Below the pieces are notes generated by a model, which saw only the letters and a program-made list of their open reading frames with translations, was not told where the DNA came from and did no database searches. The translations under genes were made by a program, and so were the position numbers. A stretch of DNA of 64,000 nt from Candidatus Levybacteria bacterium RIFCSPHIGHO2_02_FULL_40_18 (GTDB lineage: Bacteria > Patescibacteriota > Microgenomatia > Levybacterales > GWA1-39-11): the NCBI GenBank assembly GCA_001782235.1, contig MFOC01000004.1:115328-179327 (forward strand), given 5' to 3'. This document shows positions 7,416-50,374 of the stretch, in pieces; position 1 is the first letter of the stretch, and each line of letters starts with the position of its first letter.

Positions 7416-7934
7416 GTGATAGGATATTGTACTTTTATGGAATTAGCAAAAATTGGAAATTCGGGTGTCAGAATTAGATCGAAAAAAACCGCGTTTATAG
7501 TTGATCCTGCGGATGGTAAAACTGAGGGAGATGTTGTTCTTCTTTACGAAAAGCCAAAAGATTATTCAATCTTTTCAGGGAAATTGGTTATAGATAGCCC
7601 CGGGGAATATGAAGTGGGAGGGGTTAGTATTAAAGGAGAAATGGTTCGCAATAGCTTAGCCTTTGAGTTTCTTGAGGATGGTCAGAAGCTTGTTATAATT
7701 TCGAATACTGATATAATGGGCGACATTGAGACCGAGGACGTGAAAGCTGTTTTAGTCCGTCTCACAAGAAAACTTGGCGATGAAGCCCTCTCATCAATTC
7801 AGTCAGAAGTAGTATGTTTTTATGGGCCTAGCGAGTTTTTGCCACAGGAAAAAGATGCTCTGAAAAGAGTAGATAAAATCAATCTCAAAAAGACAGAAGA
7901 GCTAAAAGGATACTTAGTATATCTAACCAAATAA
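7416..7934 (+). CDS. hypothetical protein
   Basis: 172-aa ORF with no recognisable motif. Checked for a metallo-beta-lactamase HxHxDH motif; none found. Confidence 0.4.
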   Translation: MIGYCTFMELAKIGNSGVRIRSKKTAFIVDPADGKTEGDVVLLYEKPKDYSIFSGKLVIDSPGEYEVGGVSIKGEMVRNSLAFEFLEDGQKLVIISNTDIMGDIETEDVKAVLVRLTRKLGDEALSSIQSEVVCFYGPSEFLPQEKDALKRVDKINLKKTEELKGYLVYLTK

Positions 7935-9437: not shown

Positions 9438-9508
9438 GGGCCTATGGTTGAACGGTACAACACTGCATTCGCATTGCAGAGGTTCGGGTTCAATTCCCGA
9501 TAGGTCCA
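9438..9508 (+). tRNA. tRNA-Ala (anticodon CGC)
   Basis: Folded by hand. Acceptor GGGCCTA/TAGGTCC with a G3:U70 pair (Ala identity). D arm GTTG-AACGGTA-CAAC. Anticodon arm CTGCA-TTCGCAT-TGCAG. T arm TCGGG-TTCAATT-CCCGA. Discriminator A; CCA not encoded. A TATAAT box lies at 9417-9422. Confidence 0.75.
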
Positions 9509-9510
9509 CA

Positions 9511-9565
9511 GGTATCTAACGGGGTGAACATTGCGGAGACGGGAGTTCGATTCTCCCATGGTCCA
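9511..9565 (+). other. tRNA 3'-half-like fragment (T-arm GGGAG-TTCGATT-CTCCC plus ATGGTCC-A); no matching 5' acceptor found
   Basis: Lies immediately 3' of tRNA-Ala. It has a perfect T-arm and repeats the GGTCCACA 3' end. I could not fold a complete cloverleaf by eye. Confidence 0.3.
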
Positions 9566-9586
9566 CACATCGACTCGCTAGCTCGC

Positions 9587-10150
9587 TCAGACTAAATTGG
9601 CAAGGGCGAGTTCAACCTTTTGCGTAAGATTCTCGACTGTTCCGTCATTTTCGATAACTACGTCTGAGAGTTCAAGACAGGCCTGGATCTGTTGTTTGTG
9701 CGAGCCTGTTTGGGCAAATTCGCGATCATCAAGCTCTTTAAATTGCTCAAAATTTTGGATTTCATCCGTATATATTCCGCGCGCGCGAAACATATCATAC
9801 CTTTTTCTCTGATTGGCAACCACGCCAATAATCTTTGCACCAAATTTTTGTCTGAAATAATTGATTTCTGCCGGGTTTCGTATAGCATCGATTACAATGA
9901 TATCAGGATTGTCCCGCTCTATAATCTCTGCGGTTCGGACAGCTAGGATATCAGTTCCAAGAGTATTTCTGAGATCATTTGAAACCAAATTACAATTAGC
10001 TCGGTTTACGTCTAGTCCGCGCGATTTAACCTCTTCCTTAAGAACATCTGAGGTAGAGTAGGCAGAATATCCTTTTTTCTTCAGGAATTCGATAACGGTT
10101 CCTTTTCCGGACGCAATGGGGCCCACAAGCCCAATAACAATTCTTGGCAT
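9587..10150 (-). CDS. P-loop nucleoside/nucleotide kinase-like protein (AAA_18 / dNMP-kinase / dephospho-CoA-kinase-like), copy 1
   Basis: Walker A GLVGPIASGKGTV. IVIDAIRNPAEI and QACLELSDVVIEND are shared with the paralog at 10313-10876. 187 aa. Confidence 0.6.
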   Translation of the reverse strand: MPRIVIGLVGPIASGKGTVIEFLKKKGYSAYSTSDVLKEEVKSRGLDVNRANCNLVSNDLRNTLGTDILAVRTAEIIERDNPDIIVIDAIRNPAEINYFRQKFGAKIIGVVANQRKRYDMFRARGIYTDEIQNFEQFKELDDREFAQTGSHKQQIQACLELSDVVIENDGTVENLTQKVELALANLV

Positions 10151-10168
10151 TATGGGAGTATATTCTAC

Positions 10169-10212
10169 ATCAAAAGTATCAAAAGTATCAAGAGTATCAA
10201 AGGGGCATCAAG
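10169..10212. repeat. tandem imperfect 9-bp repeat (ATCAAAAGT / ATCAAGAGT / ATCAAAGGG)
   Basis: Read directly between the two kinase genes. The gtatcaaaag word recurs at 26590-26700. Confidence 0.6.
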
Positions 10213-10240
10213 GGCATGAGAAGCTACTTAATAACATAGA

Positions 10241-10310
10241 AAATGGTTGTTGGATAATGGAAATTGGTAATAGAGAATAGAAATTGGAAAATAGCTTAAA
10301 ACCAATTTCT
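10241..10310. repeat. dispersed intergenic repeat, family D, inverted copy
   Basis: The reverse complement matches ttccaatttctattctctattaccaatttccatt...aacaaccatttt found at 5885-5985. Confidence 0.5.
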
Positions 10311-10312
10311 AA

Positions 10313-10876
10313 CTAAAGATCAAAATTACTTAGAGTTTTTTTTATTTTTTTAATAAATTCTTTTTTTGTTGAGTTATTTTCGATTACTATATCGGATAGA
10401 GCGAGACAGGCTTCGACTTGTTGGCCGTGGATTGTTTCTCCAATGCCGCGATCTCTTTTTTCGACACGTACGAATTCCCTTTCTGTTTTAGGATCAGAAT
10501 CACTCTTTCTTTTTTGAGAAAATTCGAGTCTCAATTTGACAGGAGCCGTTACGCCAAGGGTCGTCGCATTATATTTTTTTCGAAGATAACCTATCTCTCC
10601 GGGATTTCTTATTCCGTCTATTACAATTTTTTGGGATCTTCCGAACAGTTTTTCAGTCTGCCTGACTAAAATGTCATCTCCAAATTTTGTCCGAAGTTCG
10701 TTTCCTATGTCCTGAAGGATTAAGCGATCATGGAGTAATCCGCGACGATCCGCCTCCTCACGCGTTCTATCGCCAAGATTAAAAGATTTAAACCCGAGCT
10801 TTTCAAGCTCCAAAATAACAGTGTCTTTTCCCGAGGCAATCGGCCCCACAACCCCCACAACCATCATCATAAGCAA
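10313..10876 (-). CDS. P-loop nucleoside/nucleotide kinase-like protein, copy 2 (tandem paralog)
   Basis: VVGVVGPIASGKDTV Walker A. IDGIRNPGEIGYL and EACLALSDIVIENN match copy 1. 187 aa. Confidence 0.6.
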   Translation of the reverse strand: MLMMMVVGVVGPIASGKDTVILELEKLGFKSFNLGDRTREEADRRGLLHDRLILQDIGNELRTKFGDDILVRQTEKLFGRSQKIVIDGIRNPGEIGYLRKKYNATTLGVTAPVKLRLEFSQKRKSDSDPKTEREFVRVEKRDRGIGETIHGQQVEACLALSDIVIENNSTKKEFIKKIKKTLSNFDL

Positions 10877-10913
10877 ATTCTAGAGATTTAATTCTGTTAA
10901 ATCAAGCTTTATA

Positions 10914-12551
10914 ATGATTTTCATAAGCGAGATAAAAAATCAACTCGTGTGGTATCATTATCCCATGCAAATAGAAAGTGCTTTTACGAAGGATCGTGCT
11001 GTATTAAGATTTTATCTACTTTTGGGCCTCTTCTTTATTTCTCGTCTAATATTTCTAAGTCCGGATCCTGTATTTTTTGATTCACCCGAATATTTAAGAC
11101 GATTAGAAATGGACGATTGGCCTCGGTCGTTAATTGATGGACACCCACCTTTCCATACTGGTTATATCCTTCTATTTTGGCCTATTTTTCACTTCGGGAA
11201 ATTCTTGGGAGTTAATGGCGCATTTCTTGTGGTACTTACACAAGCTATTCTTGCAACTTTTGCCATCTGGTGTTTTTACAAAAGCATTCTTTTATTGGCA
11301 AACAGGCGTATCGCGATATGGGCATCAATAATAGCATCAGCTTTGCCACTATGGTGGATCGTAACAGATAGCGTTATGATGGAAGCGGGATACTCAAGTA
11401 CATTCCTCATTTCTTTTTATTTTTTCCTTCTTTTTCTGAAAAAACAAAATCTCGCATTTTTCCTAACAAGCATGGTCTTCTTTTTTTTGGCTCTATTAAC
11501 ACATATCGCAGTGCTTTTTTGGATTCCATTGTTCTTTTTTGCTATCTTTCGGATATCGAAAAACCAGAGAGCAAAACTTATCGTTTACGCGACCGCAGGG
11601 TTTGTTGCAACAACAATTGCAATAGTTTATTTTTTGGCCCATGTCGGCAGCTTATCGCTCATTGAAAGCGCATCCCTTATATTTTTAAGCAAAACAGGCG
11701 AACACGTAGAGATATCATTATCGGCTATAGGAATCGCACAGCTTGTGCGGAATACTATGGTTCCGATGATTGTAAATAACACTAGCCTGATAGTTATCTT
11801 AAGTATTTTTAGTCTTTTTATCTTATGGAGAAAAGATAAAAGCTATTTTTTCTTAGGGCTTCTATGGATTTTGCCAATTACTATCACCAATAATTGGTGG
11901 GATTCGCTTTTGTTTGGTAGGCACGCTCTTCTGGCGAGTTTTGGATCCGCATTTTTAGTAGGTTCGCTTTTGGAAAAGAGCAAAAAAAAATTTTTCATAG
12001 TCATTTTTTATCTACTAGTCGTTTCATTACCGGCAGTAACCCATTTGCGACAACCAATCCCATACATAGAGGAAGCGGCAGCCGTAGAAAAATTACCCAA
12101 GGGAGGACTTATTTTGGAGACGCACTTTGCAAGACCTCAAGTTGAAAAAAAATATGAAGGTAAAATAATCTTTGTAAATGAGCCGGGATGGGATCGAGCC
12201 GATACTTTAGAACAGATTCGAACATTCTTAGCTAGCGATAGACCGGTTTTCGTTACTTCTCAAGCACTTTCAGACCCTTATGGTTTATATTCGGGACCAT
12301 ATATTCATAGCTTATCGTTATCATACGCCCACCCTTTTGTACTACAAGGTATCATAGATCGGTTTACTTTAGAAAAGTACAAAATAATTAGCGAAAAAGA
12401 TAATCTCCTTATTTATAAAGTTCTTAATGACAATCCCTCACCATACCCTGAGATTAAAAAGGTGAATCAAAGTAGGAGACGAATTGATTATTTCGATCCA
12501 ATTACACAACTTATCAATATTTTCAAAGCTAGGGCGAATTTAAAACTATAA
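10914..12551 (+). CDS. GT-C fold membrane glycosyltransferase (ArnT/PMT_2-like)
   Basis: At least 10 predicted TM helices. N-terminal motif FFDSPEYLRRLEMDDWPRSLIDGHPPFHTGYILLFW resembles the PMT/ArnT DE..Y...DW...P loop. Soluble C-terminal domain. Confidence 0.55.
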   Translation: MIFISEIKNQLVWYHYPMQIESAFTKDRAVLRFYLLLGLFFISRLIFLSPDPVFFDSPEYLRRLEMDDWPRSLIDGHPPFHTGYILLFWPIFHFGKFLGVNGAFLVVLTQAILATFAIWCFYKSILLLANRRIAIWASIIASALPLWWIVTDSVMMEAGYSSTFLISFYFFLLFLKKQNLAFFLTSMVFFFLALLTHIAVLFWIPLFFFAIFRISKNQRAKLIVYATAGFVATTIAIVYFLAHVGSLSLIESASLIFLSKTGEHVEISLSAIGIAQLVRNTMVPMIVNNTSLIVILSIFSLFILWRKDKSYFFLGLLWILPITITNNWWDSLLFGRHALLASFGSAFLVGSLLEKSKKKFFIVIFYLLVVSLPAVTHLRQPIPYIEEAAAVEKLPKGGLILETHFARPQVEKKYEGKIIFVNEPGWDRADTLEQIRTFLASDRPVFVTSQALSDPYGLYSGPYIHSLSLSYAHPFVLQGIIDRFTLEKYKIISEKDNLLIYKVLNDNPSPYPEIKKVNQSRRRIDYFDPITQLINIFKARANLKL

Positions 12552-12629
12552 CATCCTGACAGGAAGAAATTTATATGCTTATTATGATTATGGTAAAGTA
12601 ATTAATACGCTGTGTACCTACAATAAACC

Positions 12630-14201
12630 ATGAACAATTTCTTATCTAAAATATTTCACGTAGTCAAAGTTCTGATTTTCTTTGGATTGCTCTTATTTTT
12701 AACGCCAAACTCAGCGTCAGCAAGTGGTACGTGGAGCTACACAGGAAGTTTTGAAATTCCAAGGTATAACCCAGCGGCGGTAACCCTTCAAAACGGAAAA
12801 GTATTGCTTATAGGAGGACATACACCAGGAGATGTTTACAACTATAGCACTCAAATATACGATCCTGTAATGGGAACCTGGGCAGCTGCAAGCGACATGT
12901 TTTCTCCCATAGCAGATCCTTTAACAGTTTTGCTTCAAGACGGCACAGTTTTTGCGACGTATAATCGTACTCACCCGCAAACTTATGACCCTAGTACGAA
13001 TCAATGGACGCCTACAGAATATATGATTAACGATCATGCTTTTGGAACTGCGACACTGTTATCAAACGGGCATGTCTTTTTGGCTGGTGGTGTCAATCAC
13101 CCTAACACTGAAATATATAACCCTTCAACACGCACGTATTCCTATACTGGGTTTATGACTACAATTCGAGTCGAGCACGGGGCTGCTTTACTACCTAACG
13201 GTAAAGTATTACTTGCTGGGGGCCGTGATCTTTCTAACCCCATATCCTCAGCTGAGATATTTGATCCCGTAACACAAAGCTTTACTCCCACTGGAAGCAT
13301 GAACAGAGTTCGCCAATATCCAGGGATAGCCGCGCTACCAGACGGTCGTATTTTGGTAGCAGGCGGTCTTGGTGCCTCAGGTTCCCCTACAACAGCGGAG
13401 ATATATGATCTAAATACTGGTATATGGACTTTGACGGGTTCTTTGAATACGGCTAGATATTTTCCCGGCGGGCTTAAATTAGTACCCCTAGCGGATGGTA
13501 CGATAATTGCAGTTGGTAGTCATTCTAGCGGTACAAGCGAAACGTATGATCCTACTACCGGTTCATGGACTATGCAAGGTAACTTACAGGAGCCACAATG
13601 TTTTGGGGCATTAACATCATTACTTGATGGTAAAGTATTATTTGCGGGGGGGTACGATTGTGTTTCCCCAGAGAACAGGCTTTCGATAGCGCAATTATAT
13701 AGTGCTGTTGGACAACTCACGGAACTTTCTCCTGCCAAAATTTGGGTAGGGCTTAAAAATAGCGATGATGTTGGAACAAGATTTGATTTGAAGGCAGAGG
13801 TATATAAAAACAGTACCGAACTTGTTAGCTCAGGACAATTAGATAACGTCTGGGGAGGAAGCAGTGGGTTTAATAATGCTAACCTGCAAACCATTGAATT
13901 CAATCCTTTCTCACCGGTAGATTTTCCACAAGGATCAACTCTAAGCATTAAGTTATATGTCAGAAATGCCTGTCAAGGGCCAACTCATAACTCAGGAACT
14001 GCCCGCCTGTGGTATGACGATGCCGCGGCTAACAGTAGACTTGATGCAACTATTGAGGGAGCAAATAGCTATTATTACCTTAGGAATAACTTTATTTTAT
14101 CTACAACAGTGGGTAGTGGACCGAAAAAGAAAATCGATGTCAATTCAGGATCTCCTTGTAGTCCCTACAAGACTTTCGGGACATGGAGTATTACTCCATA
14201 A
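12630..14201 (+). CDS. secreted Kelch-repeat beta-propeller protein
   Basis: Signal peptide, then repeated Kelch-like units (NGKVLLIGGH..., NGHVFLAGGVNH..., NGKVLLAGGRDL..., DGRILVAGGLGA...). C-terminal domain about 150 aa. Confidence 0.7.
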   Translation: MNNFLSKIFHVVKVLIFFGLLLFLTPNSASASGTWSYTGSFEIPRYNPAAVTLQNGKVLLIGGHTPGDVYNYSTQIYDPVMGTWAAASDMFSPIADPLTVLLQDGTVFATYNRTHPQTYDPSTNQWTPTEYMINDHAFGTATLLSNGHVFLAGGVNHPNTEIYNPSTRTYSYTGFMTTIRVEHGAALLPNGKVLLAGGRDLSNPISSAEIFDPVTQSFTPTGSMNRVRQYPGIAALPDGRILVAGGLGASGSPTTAEIYDLNTGIWTLTGSLNTARYFPGGLKLVPLADGTIIAVGSHSSGTSETYDPTTGSWTMQGNLQEPQCFGALTSLLDGKVLFAGGYDCVSPENRLSIAQLYSAVGQLTELSPAKIWVGLKNSDDVGTRFDLKAEVYKNSTELVSSGQLDNVWGGSSGFNNANLQTIEFNPFSPVDFPQGSTLSIKLYVRNACQGPTHNSGTARLWYDDAAANSRLDATIEGANSYYYLRNNFILSTTVGSGPKKKIDVNSGSPCSPYKTFGTWSITP

Positions 14202-14228
14202 ATTTCTTTCTGATAAGCTAAGCTGTAT

Positions 14229-14291
14229 CTTTTCCAGAGGCTATCGGCCCCACAACCCCCACAGCTTTTGGAGAATTATTCATAGTTTATG
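14229..14291 (-). pseudogene. truncated third copy of the P-loop kinase gene (N-terminal about 20 codons, then stop)
   Basis: Minus strand reads MNNSPKAVGVVGPIASGKDTA followed by a stop. The DNA gtgggggttgtggggccgatagcctctggaaaagat is near-identical to the 5' end of kinase copy 2. Confidence 0.5.
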
Positions 14292-14393
14292 TCGAGCGGA
14301 AACGAGGCGTACCGCGTCAAACGCGGCTACCAAGTTTGACTTGGTGCCGAGAGAGGGAGTCGAATGGTTCGGCTTCGCTCACCACAAGCCCAC

Positions 14394-14481
14394 TGGTGGC
14401 CGGGGAGAGACTCGAACTCTCACGAAGCTTGCGCCACACGAGTTTTTGAGACTCGCCTGTCTACCATTCCAGCACCCGGCC
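14394..14481 (-). tRNA. tRNA-Leu (anticodon CAA), type II with long variable arm, CCA encoded
   Basis: Folded by hand from the reverse complement. Acceptor GGCCGGG/CCCGGCC, discriminator A, then CCA. 3-bp D stem CTG/CAG. Anticodon arm CGAGT-CTCAAAA-ACTCG. 17-nt variable arm with a GCAA tetraloop. T arm GAGAG-TTCGAGT-CTCTC. Confidence 0.8.
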
Positions 14482-14557: not shown

Positions 14558-15586
14558 ATGACTATTCAACAAATTTATGAACTTGCGATTGAGATGGGGA
14601 TAAAGGCAGATCCCAGAGGCACTTCTGCTGTAAAAAGGCTGCTTGAGAAGAGGGGAAAAGAATACGAAGAATTATCCTCAAAAAAGAAAAAACTTTTTGA
14701 TCTTGAATCCCTCAAAAATCCATACTCGGACACACGAATTTTATTCGGAGATGGGAGCATTGAAGTAGATAAAGTAATGGCAGGAATCGACGCGGGAGCA
14801 CCAGAAGTTCTTTTGGTTGATCGTCTCAACCAGAAAGGCCTCCGGCCCGGCCTCCACCCAGAGGGCTCTGGCCCGGCGGGAGGGGCCTCTGGCCCGGAGG
14901 GAGAAGGAATTGACCTTCTGATTTCCCATCACCCCTCAGGTCACGCTTTTGCCGCATTACATGAGGTGATGGATATTCAGGTTGATATGTTTGCAGACGC
15001 TGGAGTTCCTGCAAACGTTGCGCATTCGCTTTTTGACGTCAGAATGCAAAAGGTGAAACGCGGGATAAGTCCTTTAAATCACTCGCAGGCTGTTGATGCC
15101 GCAAGACTTCTTTTGGTTCCTCTTATGGCAATTCATACTGTTTGGGATAATCTCGGAAACCTCTTTTTAGGAAAATATCTTTCAAAAAGAAAGTTTGAAA
15201 CGGCCGGTGATGTTCTTGATTATATAAACGAAGTTCCCGAATTTGTTGAGGCAACAAAAGGCAAAGCAGGTCCCTATCTTGCGGCAGGGGTGCCTGATCG
15301 ACGAGCGGGGAAAGTGGTTTCAAACTTGACAGGAGGCACAAATCCATCAAAAGACCTGTATATGGAACTTGCTAAGGCCGGAGTCGGTACAATAGTTGAG
15401 ATGCATGTACCGGAAGAAGCGGTAGAAGAATTGAGCAAACGTCATGTTAATGTAATTGACACGGGCCATATGGCGGCTGATTCAATTGGGGCAAACATAT
15501 TTATCGACGAACTTGAAAGACAGGGAGTTACAGTTGTCCCATCCTCCGGATTAATCCGAGTAAAACGAAAAGGAAAAATCGTTTAG
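14558..15586 (+). CDS. Nif3-family dinuclear-metal-centre protein (YqfO/YbgI-like) with a GC-rich low-complexity insert
   Basis: ISHHPSGH and DTGHMAAD motifs are typical of the NIF3 family. The insert GLRPGLHPEGSGPAGGASGPEGEG is encoded by repeated ggcctc(t/c)ggcccgg. Confidence 0.65.
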   Translation: MTIQQIYELAIEMGIKADPRGTSAVKRLLEKRGKEYEELSSKKKKLFDLESLKNPYSDTRILFGDGSIEVDKVMAGIDAGAPEVLLVDRLNQKGLRPGLHPEGSGPAGGASGPEGEGIDLLISHHPSGHAFAALHEVMDIQVDMFADAGVPANVAHSLFDVRMQKVKRGISPLNHSQAVDAARLLLVPLMAIHTVWDNLGNLFLGKYLSKRKFETAGDVLDYINEVPEFVEATKGKAGPYLAAGVPDRRAGKVVSNLTGGTNPSKDLYMELAKAGVGTIVEMHVPEEAVEELSKRHVNVIDTGHMAADSIGANIFIDELERQGVTVVPSSGLIRVKRKGKIV

Positions 15587-15607: not shown

Positions 15608-17941
15608 TTGTATAATCTTACTGCCATGGCATTAGCAGAGGTAGAACGCCCAAAAGTTTTATACAGGCGGCCAGTCGATATCCCGCCGCTAGATCCTTCA
15701 GAAACTCCATCAAATGTTCGTAGGCTTTCCCAATATGTTTATAACATTGCAATTCCAAATGGCGATTTGCGTCGCGGCCAAGTGGAGGCACTCCGAGAAA
15801 CAGTAAATGCCTTTCAACAAGGCATAAGAGTAGGATATGTTGAACAGGCATCAGGATATGGAAAGTCCCGCTATATGCAGGAGATAGGGAGAGGATTTGG
15901 AGGCAGAATTGTATATGTGACCTCCGGAGAAACAACTTCTACAAATATTTTTGAGAAATATGAAGGTCGGGGCGTCGGAAGAATTGATAAAGACCATAGA
16001 GAAGTTGGCTATGAAATTACAGTTATCACAATGCAAAATTTACAATCTTTGCATAGAGCACTAAGATCCGGTAATACATCAAGGATTGATGATGCGCTAT
16101 TTATCTTTAGAGCAGATCTTATATTCGCAGATGAAGTCCATCATTATTTAACGCCACAGGGCCTTGGCATACTTGCAACTTTTCTATACATAAACCCTCA
16201 AAGCTACATGATTGGCGCAAGCGCAACCGAAGGTTATAATTTGGTGAAAAACTCCGAGCAGCAATTTGGAAAATGTCTTCATCGTGTTGGGCTTTCGGAA
16301 GCAGTTGAAGAAGAAGTCCTTATCTCTCCTCATGTATTGTTTGTCAAAACAGGTGCATCTTTGGATAGCTCAAGAATAACTCCGTCTGGTGACTTTGTTT
16401 TTGATCCCTCAATTCCGCTTCGCGCGCGCGACCAGAAACTTCTTGAGTCCTATCTTAAAGTTTGTGAAAGAGAGGGGAGGAGATTGCGGACGGTCTCTTA
16501 TCTTTCAAGCATTGACCACGCATATGACTATGCAGAACTTTGTGAGGCAATGAGGATACCGTGCGAAGTGATTATTGATGGAACAAAAAACCGCGATAGA
16601 ATTTATGAAAGACTAAGACAAGGACAGCTTGGTACAGTAGCAACAGTAAATACCGCAGTTGAAAGCCTTGATTTGCCATGGCTTGACGGAACTCTTCATT
16701 CGGCTCAAACGCGATCAATGCGAGTTGCGCGACAAATGTTTCCGCGGTCCATGAGGAATATTCCGGGGAAGAGTGCGCCGTGGATTATCCAGGCGGTTGA
16801 TGAGAAGACCTCCTGGCACAGAAGGCCTCTTGTAGCACCAGATATTTTGGGACAAACACGATTTGCCAACGGCTCAATTATTGTCCCAAAAAGTGCAGGT
16901 GAAGACATCCCGATTTCTCATACCGGGAAGGTATATAGTGTTGGGGTTGATCTTGCGGAAGGGACAGATGTTGATGTTGAAGTTATTGACATACGCTCTT
17001 TATTTAAGATGGGCATTTTAGACCGTGCGGTTCTTCTTGGAAAAGGACTATTGCCGCAGGAAGAAGTTGAAAAATTCCGCGCAGAGATAAATGAGTTGCT
17101 TACAAGAAAATTTGAAGGAGAATGGCCACCATCTTCATATAGGGTGTATATAGATATAGCAGGAAGGTTTAAATTATTTGACGAGATAACAAATCAAGAA
17201 GTATCCCTGGCACATATAGCCGGCCGCGTTTTTGACACAGGAACGCAAGAATTGAGAGCAATTCATTGGCATGCTTTTCAAGATTTTCTTAGAACAGGCA
17301 AACTTTCTCAAATTGATAAACAAGAAAATACAGAGAGAAACAACGGTTTAAATGAAAATTTTATTGATCCTGAATTTGCCGAGCTTTGCGATAAATTCAA
17401 AACAGGCAAGATATCAGAGAATGAAAAGAGGGTCCTGGCAGCTACCCTTAGAAGCGTCTGGGAAACAAGAAGTGATACAGTATTTGTAAGTAATCTAGGC
17501 AATATTTGCTTAGACCACGAAATGTTTAGAGGATCAGCAGGAATCTTAGGAAGGTTATTGGGAATTAATATAGCAAGCAGAGTTGGTAGTTACCAATTTT
17601 CATCACAATCAAGAACTCGTCTATTTGAATTCATAAATCAATACAGTGAAGGAGAAGAATTGGGAGCGTCTCAAGATAAAAAGGCAAAAGAGGTTACTTC
17701 TGATGGAACCCATCCGGAATTTGGTGATGTAGGGGCCTTTCTTAAAGAGGTTTTTGAAGACGCCCAAAGAAAAGGTATTGATATTAGGGATCTTACCGTA
17801 ATGACTAGCTATAGAGTTCCGTCCATAGGTAGGCTTTCGACCATTGCCCAAAAATTAGGTATTAGAGATAGAAACAATTACAACTTTATAACTAAACGAG
17901 AGTTAAGTGTTCTTCTTATGATGGCGGGAATTGAAGCATAA
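15608..17941 (+). CDS. superfamily-2 helicase (DEAH/ResIII-like core) with an uncharacterised C-terminal region of about 400 aa
   Basis: Motif I QASGYGKS, motif II IFADEVHHY, motif III GASATEG, motif V VNTAVESLDLPW, motif VI-like QTRSMRVARQ. The C-terminal half has no recognisable motif. Confidence 0.55.
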   Translation: MYNLTAMALAEVERPKVLYRRPVDIPPLDPSETPSNVRRLSQYVYNIAIPNGDLRRGQVEALRETVNAFQQGIRVGYVEQASGYGKSRYMQEIGRGFGGRIVYVTSGETTSTNIFEKYEGRGVGRIDKDHREVGYEITVITMQNLQSLHRALRSGNTSRIDDALFIFRADLIFADEVHHYLTPQGLGILATFLYINPQSYMIGASATEGYNLVKNSEQQFGKCLHRVGLSEAVEEEVLISPHVLFVKTGASLDSSRITPSGDFVFDPSIPLRARDQKLLESYLKVCEREGRRLRTVSYLSSIDHAYDYAELCEAMRIPCEVIIDGTKNRDRIYERLRQGQLGTVATVNTAVESLDLPWLDGTLHSAQTRSMRVARQMFPRSMRNIPGKSAPWIIQAVDEKTSWHRRPLVAPDILGQTRFANGSIIVPKSAGEDIPISHTGKVYSVGVDLAEGTDVDVEVIDIRSLFKMGILDRAVLLGKGLLPQEEVEKFRAEINELLTRKFEGEWPPSSYRVYIDIAGRFKLFDEITNQEVSLAHIAGRVFDTGTQELRAIHWHAFQDFLRTGKLSQIDKQENTERNNGLNENFIDPEFAELCDKFKTGKISENEKRVLAATLRSVWETRSDTVFVSNLGNICLDHEMFRGSAGILGRLLGINIASRVGSYQFSSQSRTRLFEFINQYSEGEELGASQDKKAKEVTSDGTHPEFGDVGAFLKEVFEDAQRKGIDIRDLTVMTSYRVPSIGRLSTIAQKLGIRDRNNYNFITKRELSVLLMMAGIEA

Positions 17942-18592: not shown

Positions 18593-18634
18593 CCCCATTA
18601 GATAACTTCGTATCTAACGGGGTAAACTTCCTAA

Positions 18635-44362: not shown

Positions 44363-44503
44363 ACAAATAAATAGCTACATAGCTGAATAGTTACATAGTT
44401 CTAAAACCATTTTGACCATTTTAGCTATATAACTATTTCATATTTAATCGTATTAGATTTGTTGATATAATGTCAACCCTGTTGGAGACTTAAGAAAAAT
44501 AAT

Positions 44504-45202
44504 TTGGTAAAATTATTTTTCTCTTACCGTTATTGCAATTGTGTCTCTAACGGGGTCAATATGACTGGCTATGTTTTAATAGGCGATTTAGAGTCTAAAA
44601 ATAATTTTGTTGCAAACTTTATTAAAAAGGAAGACATTTCAAGCTACAATTTGTTTGATTATAAAGAGATATTAAAAATCCCAGAGGTGCGCGAAATCAA
44701 AAAGCTTCTTTCAAAAAAAGCCTTTTCGGGGAAGAGGCGGCTTTTTATAATTCGAGATGCGACTATTGCCGCGCAGAATGCCCTTCTTAAGACGTTAGAA
44801 GAATTACCCGAAGATACATACTTCATTTTTTTAGAAGAGACAATATTAATCCCAACCATACTTTCGAGAGTACGTTTATTAAAGTTTGAGAGGAAAAAAC
44901 CAAGAATAGATAGGGACCTTGAGACTATATTAGGAAATTTTATTAGCGGGAAAAAAGATCTATCCTCCGCTCTTCTATTGGCAGACAGATTATTCTCCCA
45001 AAATCCCAACTTAACACTTAATGATCTTACGCTCTGCTTAAGAGAAATTCTTTTCAAACAAATTAAACAAGGAGATTTAGAAAAAACTAATTTTGTCTTG
45101 AGATTTCTTAAGTCTTTATACCAGTACATTCCGCTTACCGATAGCAACAATTTAAATAAAAGACTTGCGCTTGAAAGGATTCTGCTTGAAATTGCCTCTT
45201 GA
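44504..45202 (+). CDS. holB: DNA polymerase III delta-prime subunit-like (clamp-loader AAA+ lid)
   Basis: ALLKTLEELPEDTYFIFLEETILIPTILSRV matches the delta-prime sensor region. The likely true start is the internal Met MTGYVLIGD. Confidence 0.6.
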   Translation: MVKLFFSYRYCNCVSNGVNMTGYVLIGDLESKNNFVANFIKKEDISSYNLFDYKEILKIPEVREIKKLLSKKAFSGKRRLFIIRDATIAAQNALLKTLEELPEDTYFIFLEETILIPTILSRVRLLKFERKKPRIDRDLETILGNFISGKKDLSSALLLADRLFSQNPNLTLNDLTLCLREILFKQIKQGDLEKTNFVLRFLKSLYQYIPLTDSNNLNKRLALERILLEIAS

Positions 45203-49393: not shown

Positions 49394-49483
49394 CCCCGTT
49401 AGAAGTGTAATATGGGATCAGCTACGAAAAATAATTCCAGTAGGTATAATTAAACAGGTTTTTTGATATGAAAGACTTTTCTA

Positions 49484-50374
49484 TTGCTTTTGCATGTAAT
49501 AAACCTACGAATTATTTTTCTCAAACTTCTAACGGGGTTGACAGGCGTCTCGGATTTCTTCTATGATAGATATATGAAAAAGTTTAAGGGAGAAAAAGGG
49601 CAAATGCTTTTGGTGGTTGTATTGACTATGATCGTTGCGTTGACTGTTGGTCTTTCTGTTGTCTCGCGGACAATAACTAATCTTAGAATTTCAAGGCAAA
49701 GCGAAGAATCTCAGCGCGCGTTCCAAGCGGCGGAGGCAGGAATTGAAAGAACTCTCGAGTCGGGAGCGGGAGTACTAAGTCCCCAATCATTAGGAAACAA
49801 TGCGGAATTTACAACAGACATTAATAATCTATCCGGAAACGCTTTTGGACTTAATGGAGGTGAGATTATTGAGCAAGATATAGGAATAGATCTTTGGTTG
49901 TCAGACTATCCTAATTATTCGAATCAAATCTGTCCATCTTCCTGTACAATCTCTCTTCATTTTAATACTACCGAACAAAGTTGCAGTACAGGCAGCGGAA
50001 ACAACACGCGGGCGGGCCTTGAGGTGGTTGTTTTGTCAGGTAATCTTTCGAGCCCCACTCTTACTAAATACCTTTTTGATTCCTGCACGAGTAGAACTTT
50101 AGGAGCGGGAAATACGGGCAGCGGAACAACAATCGACGGCATAACTTATCAACATGGCGTTAGCATTCCTATTACAAATGGGATAATAGCAAGAGTTATC
50201 CCATTTTATAATTCCGTTAAAATCGGAGTGACGTCAAGCGCTGCCATTCCAGTTCAAGGTAGAATAATAGAATCTACTGGTCAATCAGGAGAAACAGTTC
50301 GTAAGGTTCAATATTTTTCATCACATGCGCAATTGCCGCTTGAAATTTTTCCCTATTCAATCATTTCACAATGA
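49484..50374 (+). CDS. hypothetical pilus-associated protein with N-terminal hydrophobic anchor
   Basis: The likely start is the internal MKKFKGEKGQMLLVVVLTMIVALTVGL. Sits between the pilin genes and pilM. Confidence 0.4.
   Translation: MLLHVINLRIIFLKLLTGLTGVSDFFYDRYMKKFKGEKGQMLLVVVLTMIVALTVGLSVVSRTITNLRISRQSEESQRAFQAAEAGIERTLESGAGVLSPQSLGNNAEFTTDINNLSGNAFGLNGGEIIEQDIGIDLWLSDYPNYSNQICPSSCTISLHFNTTEQSCSTGSGNNTRAGLEVVVLSGNLSSPTLTKYLFDSCTSRTLGAGNTGSGTTIDGITYQHGVSIPITNGIIARVIPFYNSVKIGVTSSAAIPVQGRIIESTGQSGETVRKVQYFSSHAQLPLEIFPYSIISQ

Follow-up and report, generated by a model that had tools for sequence, protein, structure and literature searches.

A variable interval between two replaced tRNA genes in Candidatus Levybacteria, and candidate mobile elements that nest tRNA genes within tRNA genes

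The interval between the tRNA-Ala(CGC) and tRNA-Leu(CAA) genes of Candidatus Levybacteria bacterium RIFCSPHIGHO2_02_FULL_40_18, a groundwater bacterium, was analyzed within a 64-kb stretch of contig MFOC01000004.1, hereafter called the window. Our results indicate that this interval is probably a conserved Levybacteria backbone locus and a hot spot of cargo exchange, and not a single integrated island. More tentatively, in a proposal to which we would give not quite an even chance, bacteria of the candidate phyla radiation (CPR) may harbour undescribed small mobile elements that have palindromic ends and often a GIY-YIG gene of about 80 amino acids (aa), insert in a tRNA loop, carry a whole tRNA gene of the same identity, and re-invade their own cargo to form nests up to three deep. 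The window would then hold two remnants of such elements (9510-9566 and 14344-14393) and three relatives without a tRNA, and breaks at both tRNA genes would make the interval a hot spot.

The tRNA-Ala and tRNA-Leu genes and their scars

The tRNA-Ala(cgc) and tRNA-Leu(caa) genes are the only tRNA genes found by ARAGORN and Rfam in the whole 64 kb, and they bracket the block on the plus and minus strands, respectively, just as a previous reading of the sequence alone had stated. The intact tRNA-Ala(CGC) gene lies at 9438-9509 on the plus strand (Rfam, 66.9 bits) and has its own -10 box (tagtataat) about 20 nucleotides (nt) upstream. It is followed immediately by the right arm of a palindromic mini-element (9510-9529, plus strand), consisting of ATCTAACGGGG at 9514-9524 and then TGAAC; the matching left arm, CCCCGTTAGAT, is missing at the tRNA-Ala gene in the window. 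Next comes a scar (9530-9566, plus strand), ATTGCGGAGACGGGAGTTCGATTCTCCCATGGTCCAC, in which another tRNA-Ala(CGC) allele is represented by its 3′ half, from position 37 to the discriminator base (positions 37-73).

The tRNA-Leu side has a comparable structure. The intact tRNA-Leu(CAA) gene, which encodes its own CCA end, lies at 14394-14481 (minus strand). It was found by ARAGORN and by Rfam (53.6 bits), and is a foreign allele compared with those of the close relatives. Behind it, also on the minus strand, lie a 29-nt spacer (14365-14393), which arrived together with the present gene, and a scar (14344-14364) left by the resident tRNA-Leu(CAA) allele, namely its last 21 nt, which run from the T-loop as far as the discriminator base. 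This scar, TTCGACTCCCTCTCTCGGCAC, is identical at 21/21 nt to the 3′ end of the tRNA-Leu gene of L050, the closest relative, and differs at six positions from the intact tRNA gene adjacent to it.

Judged by DnaB identity, the relatives of the window belong to Candidatus Levybacteria (CPR, Microgenomates), with 94% for locus L050, 90% for L001, and 82-66% for L002-L011. The identity of the tRNA genes to those of the relatives does not track these values. The window tRNA-Ala gene is identical at 70/72 nt to that of L003 (DnaB 81%), and at 58/72 nt to that of the closer L001. Together, the tRNA-Ala gene and its scar are 97% identical to L003 over 129 nt, compared with about 71% for the flanking genes. 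The window tRNA-Leu gene matches that of L050 at only 66/87 nt, although the DnaB proteins are 94% identical, with the acceptor stem changed on both strands, and it matches that of any relative at 70/89 nt at most. The scars and this incongruence between tRNA and DnaB indicate that both tRNA genes were replaced by foreign alleles; the target allele has thus been exchanged in a manner incongruent with the species tree at both ends of the interval.

Structured DNA beside tRNA-Leu is also found elsewhere. Six DnaB loci of the Collierbacteria type (L023, L033, L040, L048, L061 and L078) share a conserved structured insert 90-125 nt downstream of tRNA-Leu(caa), in the order GGGGATCGAAC, a hairpin with a CGTAACG loop, GGTGAGGCAGG, and a duplicate of the last 20 nt of the tRNA. 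In some of these loci the terminator of the tRNA-Leu gene is duplicated as well, and some have a 5′ fragment upstream. The insert matched no Rfam family. By eye only, the 29-nt spacer in the window loosely resembles this structured flank. A hammerhead-like reading of the tRNA-Leu flank (CUGGUGAG...CGAA), also made by eye, was dropped for lack of Rfam support.

tRNA genes nested within tRNA genes

The origin of such scars can be read from L003. There, a tRNA-Ala gene and 57 downstream nt like those of the window are preceded by GGGCCATTAGCATGGTGGTAGTGCGCCGCACTCGC and then CCCGTTAGATGGTAC, so that the tRNA gene is the inner member of a nested pair. When the two outer halves are joined, ARAGORN reports a perfect tRNA-Ala(cgc). 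The arms flanking the inner tRNA pair over 11 base pairs, and the minimum-free-energy fold shows the outer cloverleaf, a closing helix and the inner tRNA (z-score -4.6). Other relatives retain 5′ halves, 3′ halves or both, and these belong to allele types that are intact in other genomes.

The same architecture recurs in independent assemblies. A single metagenome scan, which looked for a further T-arm and acceptor behind the 3′ end of tRNA-Ala, retrieved about 25 loci in which an intact tRNA-Ala (CGC or TGC) is followed by a 3′ half, and many of these have the matching 5′ half upstream. The joined outer halves were called as tRNA-Ala by ARAGORN in seven loci. With introns allowed, ARAGORN does not report the outer genes, which are recovered only by joining the halves by hand. 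The inserts in tRNA-Ala lie in the anticodon loop, at positions 33/34, 35/36, 36/37 or 37/38, and belong to several flank families with complementary ends, namely TCCCGAT..ATCGGGA, CCCCGTTAGA..TCTAACGGGG, CCCCCACACCA..TGGTGTGGGGG and CCCGCC..GGCGGG. Stacking can go far, as in L120, which has four 5′ halves in a row. Most of the outer genes are decayed.

A nuclease domain is tightly linked to these structures. Full-length elements carry an open reading frame (ORF) of about 80 aa with a GIY-YIG domain (E about 1e-17 to 1e-18). Among the DnaB and metagenome loci compared, nine of ten tblastn matches to the GIY-YIG ORF adjoin a tRNA gene. All five further contexts of GIY-YIG homologues that were examined show the same order of outer 5′ half, TCCCGAT, GIY-YIG ORF, hairpin and intact tRNA-Ala, and four of the five (L213-L216) have also kept the right element end and the 3′ half. 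GIY-YIG ORFs lie inside tRNA-Ala cassettes in L100, L108, L177 and L212-L216. The cassettes appear to be a widespread and apparently undescribed kind of CPR mobile element.

Several individual loci show how varied these arrangements are. In L177 (4290-4930, minus strand), tRNA-Ala genes are nested three deep and involve two element families. The outermost gene is split by an element with CCCCGTTAGAC ends, the second is split at 35/36 by a TCCCGAT-ended element with an 85-aa GIY-YIG ORF and an intact innermost tRNA-Ala, and both sets of 3′ halves follow in mirror order. A syntenic DnaB locus, L006 (13235-13720, minus strand), has a promoter, a 5′ fragment of tRNA-Leu, a 78-aa GIY-YIG ORF and an intact tRNA-Leu(caa). 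The fragment stems from an older tRNA-Leu gene that was split in the D-loop, and reads GGCGCGGTGGC, a hairpin and GCGGAATGG. The Nif3-like and ResIII genes found to the right in the window are absent from L006, where an aminopeptidase gene and elongation factor P (EF-P) are found instead. GIY-YIG ORFs also adjoin tRNA-Thr, tRNA-Phe, tRNA-Arg, tRNA-Val and tRNA-Leu(gag) genes (L100, L099, L132, L090 and L215). In L185 (11581-11654), exact copies of parts of a tRNA-Lys(ttt) gene, from its own 5′ and 3′ portions, lie about 100 and 70 nt away from it, and therefore nesting is not limited to tRNA-Ala and tRNA-Leu. Six loci (L133, L121, L129, L094, L213 and L214) have additional short palindromic inserts, such as CCCCGAT, a hairpin and ATCGGGA, in the D- or T-loop of the outer halves, and these outer halves are presumably dead.

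Could the inserts be true introns? The outer halves would then be spliced, or held together by the helix, and the inner tRNA released by RNase P and RNase Z, which would make 9510-9566 the remnant of an intron-containing gene. Several features would fit. In several loci the insertion is at or next to the canonical position 37/38, the closing helices vary in sequence yet remain complementary, base pairing is seen between the leader and both the ACCA end and the trailer of the inner tRNA, several outer genes still form perfect cloverleaves, and group I introns are known from tRNA genes of uncultured phyla. Nevertheless, we consider this explanation quite unlikely. Rfam searches of the window region and nine element loci, at gathering and at relaxed thresholds, returned tRNAs and chance matches only, with no intron, ribozyme or known small RNA; neither a group I nor a group II core was thus detected. 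Inspection revealed no bulge-helix-bulge motif, and the inserts in the anticodon loop did not fit one. Moreover, most outer genes are incomplete, lack the anticodon or have further inserts in their D- or T-loops, and these palindromes are also present between genes, where no tRNA accompanies them. Complementary ends, finally, are equally expected of terminal inverted repeats.

Such tRNA-less palindromes are also present in the window, where the palindrome motif has six matches against 0.8 expected. Three tRNA-less copies share the ends CCCCGTTAGA and TCTAACGGGG with the half-copy scar at 9514-9524. The first (18593-18622, CCCCATTAGAT..ATCTAACGGGG) lies just after the EF-P gene and folds at -15.5 kcal/mol (z-score -3.6), the second (44477-44555) has TCAA on both flanks, and the third (49394-49537, 144 nt, CCCCGTTAGAAG..CTTCTAACGGGG) folds at -48.6 kcal/mol (z-score -7.1). 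With terminal inverted repeats and several copies per genome, the family has traits of miniature inverted-repeat transposable elements. It resembles these, as well as the Rickettsia palindromic elements, in being short, in forming long hairpins and in having flanking direct repeats in some copies. It differs from both in that some copies carry tRNA and GIY-YIG genes inside tRNA genes, and in that no transposase was identified.

Among known systems, the cassettes resemble free-standing homing genes such as that of phage T4 SegB, a GIY-YIG protein whose gene lies in a tRNA gene cluster and spreads by “intronless homing” (PMC2330249). As with SegB, a small GIY-YIG gene is tightly linked to tRNA genes here, and homing of this type would be expected to result in nuclease-linked inheritance of tRNA alleles with co-conversion of the flanks; incongruent tRNA alleles are what we see. 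While the SegB gene lies between genes, the cassettes lie inside the target gene, which they destroy and duplicate; they nest recursively, they have palindromic ends, and their cleavage activity is a prediction. Insertions in CPR rRNA genes come from the same host group and likewise interrupt structural RNA genes. Some of these encode LAGLIDADG or GIY-YIG proteins, and GIY-YIG ORFs are reported from inserts that are unlike group I or II introns (PMC11270868). The study is confined to rRNA, with no mention of tRNA. Fragmentation is tolerated by rRNA, whereas the tRNA inserts carry a replacement gene. The split and intron-containing tRNA genes of archaea, such as the split tRNAs of Nanoarchaeum and the multi-intron tRNAs of Thermoproteales (PMC4390854, PMC4090602), are also broken in or near the anticodon loop, have complementary flanks and can have D- and T-loop inserts. 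The differences are the bacterial hosts, the lack of a visible bulge-helix-bulge, the complete tRNA within the insert and the decay of most outer genes.

In the literature searched, we found no published description of nested bacterial tRNA genes, which is not proof of novelty. Two scans of viral contigs with the element-end motifs gave chance matches in coding DNA with no tRNA nearby, and thus no evidence that the elements are borne by phages.

The interval between the tRNA genes and its cargo

Between the two tRNA genes, the window has four intact genes. Two 187-aa kinase genes on the minus strand (kinase 1, 9587-10150; kinase 2, 10313-10876) are followed by two plus-strand genes, for a GT-C membrane glycosyltransferase (10914-12551) and a secreted Kelch beta-propeller protein (12630-14201). 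The tandem kinase pair, the divergent GT-C gene and the secreted Kelch protein had all been recognized in the sequence-only reading, and both paralogous kinase ORFs were recovered here. Synteny was determined by tblastn of ten window proteins against the DnaB loci, together with tRNA scans. Eleven relatives share a backbone of two upstream genes, a 172-aa protein, DnaB, tRNA-Ala(cgc), kinase 1, a slot of variable content, tRNA-Leu(caa) and a Nif3-like gene. In the minimal form, found in L003 and L005, the slot is empty, and DnaB and tRNA-Ala are followed by kinase 1 directly beside tRNA-Leu and the Nif3-like gene. The arrangement in which dnaB is directly followed by the Nif3-family gene, which had been suggested as a point to check in related genomes, was never found, as even this shortest form keeps tRNA-Ala, kinase 1 and tRNA-Leu.

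The content between the kinase genes and tRNA-Leu is different in nearly every relative. L050 has kinase 2 and a MaoC-type hotdog protein in the slot. In L001 the slot holds a further kinase together with a MazG-like protein and a LAGLIDADG-like ORF, and in L006, L009 and L011 it holds a uridine-kinase-like protein, a transporter of the major facilitator superfamily and a Maf-like protein, respectively. In L001 (4696-5756, minus strand), the LAGLIDADG-like ORF (244 aa, near the Pfam threshold) begins 7 nt after tRNA-Leu, and is followed by the MazG-like ORF and then by a third kind of kinase paralogue (206 aa). In L003, L006 and L009, the tRNA-Ala unit, its own -10 box included, has the opposite orientation with respect to DnaB. 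In L003, tRNA-Leu is inverted too, with the orientation of kinase 1 unchanged.

In the window, the cargo of the slot consists of the GT-C and Kelch genes. Nucleotide homology with L050 ends at 10905 and restarts at 14434, with the exception of the 21-nt tRNA-Leu fragment, which delimits lineage-specific DNA of two genes at about 10906-14221, ending at a cut third kinase gene. Only this part of the interval is lineage-specific, and neither of the two genes had a tblastn match in any of the 80 DnaB loci. The third kinase paralogue (14218-14283, minus strand) is cut off after codon 21, where the cargo begins, and what is left of it comprises the Walker A region. The description of the whole block as accessory was thus right for the cargo; the tRNA genes and kinase 1 belong to the backbone, and kinase 2 is common to the window and L050.

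The GT-C gene encodes a multi-pass protein of 545 aa (GT39 or PMT_2-like) and starts 37 nt from kinase 2, in divergent orientation. Its own PMT_2 match is weak (19.5 bits against a cut-off of 26.1), and the GT39 name comes from homologues with 40-49% identity that carry PF13231. Such homologues are common in Levybacteria in unrelated neighbourhoods, and the contexts examined showed no conserved link to tRNA genes or kinases. The Kelch protein (523 aa) has Pfam matches to Kelch_1 and Kelch_6 (92.6 bits, E about 1e-26), with Kelch_2 and Kelch_4 also above threshold, a C-terminal domain of about 150 aa, and, by inspection, a signal-peptide-like hydrophobic stretch at the N-terminus ending in SASA. 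Full-length homologues with 58-60% identity are found in other CPR-like contigs. In L207, a GT-C gene (75% identical over the C-terminus) lies directly upstream of a Kelch homologue (58%) in a different context, which indicates that the two genes travel as a pair. They probably act jointly at the cell surface, either by glycosylation of the secreted protein or on a shared envelope glycan. A 15-nt inverted repeat with one arm on either side of the Kelch gene (12560-12574 and 14198-14212) was set aside, as it is at about chance level in 6 kb of AT-rich DNA. The neighbours of the pair in L207 (1-2076) are a 132-aa ORF, tRNA-Val(cac), signal peptidase, ParB and the ribosomal proteins L27 and L21. 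Downstream of P0083, a second Kelch homologue, come a Ni-superoxide dismutase and a PhdYeFM/PIN toxin-antitoxin pair.

The sequence-only reading took the block for an island integrated at the 3′ end of a tRNA gene. In its classical form, an element with a tyrosine integrase, inserted at the 3′ end of tRNA-Ala or tRNA-Leu, would have brought in the kinases, GT-C and Kelch genes. Indeed, tRNA genes bound the block, partial tRNA 3′ ends adjoin both of them, and the GT-C and Kelch genes are absent from the relatives. Islands and prophages with a tyrosine integrase likewise target tRNA genes, carry a partial tRNA copy so that function is kept, leave displaced tRNA fragments and make the adjacent DNA variable. 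Yet the locus lacks what defines an integrase island, namely an integrase, a distal repeat, absence of the block as a whole from relatives and a deviant composition. No integrase, excisionase or transposase was found within 24 kb (Pfam on the larger ORFs of 0-24 kb, and the precomputed contig annotation). Each tRNA fragment is close to its own tRNA gene, at a distance of 20 and 29 nt, respectively, with no copy at the other side of the block, and kinase 1 and both tRNA genes are backbone in all informative relatives. Furthermore, relatives keep 5′ halves upstream with a whole tRNA gene in between, a product that an integrase crossover does not make. Whereas islands carry the 3′ end alone, here a whole tRNA gene is carried, the insert lies inside the anticodon loop, 5′ and 3′ halves are left, and the scars stand beside the tRNA.

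A shift in composition, which had been proposed as a check on the island, was not found either. Between 9.5 and 14.5 kb, neither GC content, GC content at third codon positions (GC3) nor codon usage gave a signal of foreign origin. All three fall within the spread of the other 52 ORFs for the four genes, GC and GC3 deviating by no more than about one standard deviation, and the z values of synonymous codon usage for the four are +0.72, +0.25, -0.68 and -1.51 (56 ORFs in total), the Kelch gene being the most deviant. Taken together, a classical island is very unlikely. The idea that tRNA genes serve as entry points survives in another form, as mobile DNA does seem to target them, in small palindromic cassettes with a putative homing nuclease that replace the tRNA, and not at the 3′ ends in the manner of islands. 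Recombination within the block, which had also been proposed, has clearly happened, though the interval is no single island.

Native composition would also agree with ordinary vertical evolution, in which the ancestor already had three kinases and the GT-C and Kelch genes at this site, the relatives lost them by deletion, and the tRNA fragments are unrelated decayed duplicates. Homologues of GT-C are common in Levybacteria, and CPR genomes are prone to gene loss. We nonetheless regard this course of events as unlikely. It requires independent loss of the pair in 11/11 relatives, including the closest one, which has another gene in the slot. In addition, the truncated kinase records a destructive event in the window lineage, the GT-C/Kelch pair sits in another neighbourhood in L207, and the tRNA alleles are incongruent with DnaB relatedness. 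Kinase 1, in contrast to the cargo, is inherited vertically, with orthologues of 42-77% identity at the same position in L001, L003-L011 and L050.

The truncated kinase, or stub, needs a closer look, because it had been described as a 21-codon fragment abutting tRNA-Leu and nearly identical in its DNA to the 5′ end of kinase 2. The fragment is there, and its translation is MNNSPKAVGVVGPIASGKDTA, followed by a stop. Its start codon lies 110 nt from the 3′ end of tRNA-Leu, and 60 nt from the intervening tRNA-Leu 3′ fragment, so that it does not abut the tRNA gene. The near-identity is confined to the P-loop (36/39 or 37/42 nt, 88-92%), while the first seven codons are unrelated. Since the L050 orthologue of kinase 2 is as similar to kinase 2 (37/42 nt) as the stub is, and since the first seven codons differ, the stub is no fresh duplicate of kinase 2, and its reading as a recent copy of the 5′ end of that gene was rejected.

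If the cassettes are mobile elements with a homing nuclease, they could act as follows. The nuclease would cut uninterrupted tRNA genes, with both its activity and its target being predictions, and repair would copy the cassette into the cut gene. The host would survive thanks to the carried tRNA. If the inner gene subsequently recombined with the outer halves, one or both scars could be trimmed, which would explain the missing 5′ half directly after the tRNA-Ala promoter in the window. Repeated breaks at two tRNA genes about 5 kb apart, repaired from foreign or ectopic templates, would lead to a turnover of the DNA in the interval. Both the truncated kinase and a cargo that varies among almost all relatives would agree with this.

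Several points weigh against this account. The nuclease activity, its target and the copying mechanism are predicted, and a link between tRNA-directed breaks and the arrival of the GT-C and Kelch genes is purely one that we infer. The window itself has no homing endonuclease gene by tblastn, only scars. The cargo junctions have no signature besides the truncated kinase, and the stub may have arisen either as a third paralogue in tandem or by recombination. Direct repeats of 4 nt (TTGA, TTCA, TCAA and TCAA) flank four tRNA-less copies, and would fit transposition and not homing. L216 adds a TTGA repeat of this kind, while the remaining copies and all copies inside tRNA genes have none. Gaps in assembly could account for some absences, given that the relatives come from metagenome-assembled genomes, although the minimal loci L003 and L005 are contiguous. 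Transposition, as the 4-nt repeats would allow, and an RNA-level role of the closing helices would be alternatives to nuclease copying.

For the window, the label of an island at a tRNA gene gives way to the picture of a conserved backbone locus in which both tRNA genes were swapped and a single small surface module is specific to the lineage. More generally, a recurrent architecture of uncultured bacteria comes into view, in which a tRNA gene sits within a tRNA gene and is linked to a tiny GIY-YIG gene. If this is a real mobile system, it would give selfish DNA a way, with no need of a self-splicing intron, into a non-coding gene that is essential and present in a single copy. It would explain why tRNA sequences depart from species relationships in these genomes, why tRNA finders report fragments beside genes, and why the DNA next to these tRNA genes turns over fast. 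The cassettes would also offer candidate sequence-specific nucleases with defined short targets.

Kinases, neighbouring genes and assembly

Kinase 1 and kinase 2 are only 40% identical and are therefore old paralogues. Kinase 2 is 72% identical to its orthologue in L050, and the homologous DNA upstream of it extends to window position 10905. Judging from their profiles, both are stand-alone nucleotide-kinase-like proteins with a P-loop, of the UPF0200 or dNMP-kinase-like type. They have the Walker A motif GPIASGK(G/D)T, and match AAA_17, AAA_18 and phage dNMP-kinase profiles (Pfam, PHROG). Full-length matches were obtained with PRK08356 (69.7 and 58.4 bits, below the cut-off of 189), with PDB 3h0k/3lw7, which are solved UPF0200/AdkA-like proteins (5e-7), and with PHROG 139 (1e-12 to 1e-15). 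The dCTPase model of PADLOC, which has 630 positions, is matched in its kinase-like part alone, at positions 153-325 (1.5e-27 for kinase 1). The matches to PRK08356, PDB, PHROG 139 and PADLOC all fall short of the curated cut-offs. An anti-phage dCTP deaminase system was accordingly rejected, as the proteins have 187 aa and lack the deaminase domain. In the spacer between the two genes, upstream of kinase 1, lie three overlapping copies of the 9-nt unit ATCAAAAGT (10169-10201), which may be an operator or promoter element. The same spacer in L050 has another short tandem repeat at the same place.

The window comes from a metagenome assembly, and P-loop and tRNA segments are repeated within it. 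The contig could be a chimera, an artefact of assembly or binning in which pieces were joined at such tRNA or kinase repeats. The repeats are merely 21-42 nt long and imperfect. Moreover, an independent 71-kb contig of the Joint Genome Institute has the Kelch protein and the same gene order, including the upstream genes through EF-P and beyond, and the Kelch protein is indexed on at least 23 contigs. Because the gene order is the same on an independent contig, an artefact is disfavoured, and we regard it as extremely improbable.

The genes around the interval are largely housekeeping genes, and include those for an HtrA-like protease, SSB, a CtpA-type protease, CysRS, EF-P, Lgt and RluD-type proteins. 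The right-hand neighbour had been assigned to the Nif3 family. This assignment is supported by a match to PDB 3rxy (“NIF3 protein”, 2.8e-21 over residues 117-332), and falls short in Pfam, where NIF3 scores 15.6 bits against a cut-off of 23.4. Within this gene, about three tandem 21-nt repeats (14834-14901) encode a Gly/Pro/Glu-rich stretch (GLHPEGSGPAGGASGPEGEG). The alignments with L001 and L050 skip about 60 nt there, and thus the repeat insertion is specific to the window lineage. After the Nif3-like gene comes a 777-aa ResIII-type helicase-like protein (15608-17941), which is 57% identical in L001. Behind the Nif3 gene of the other relatives, no counterpart was detected as far as the retrieved flanks extend. 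On the other side, the 172-aa protein directly 5′ of DnaB (7416-7934) has no Pfam or NCBIfam match, and is kept in all Levybacteria relatives with 30-72% identity.

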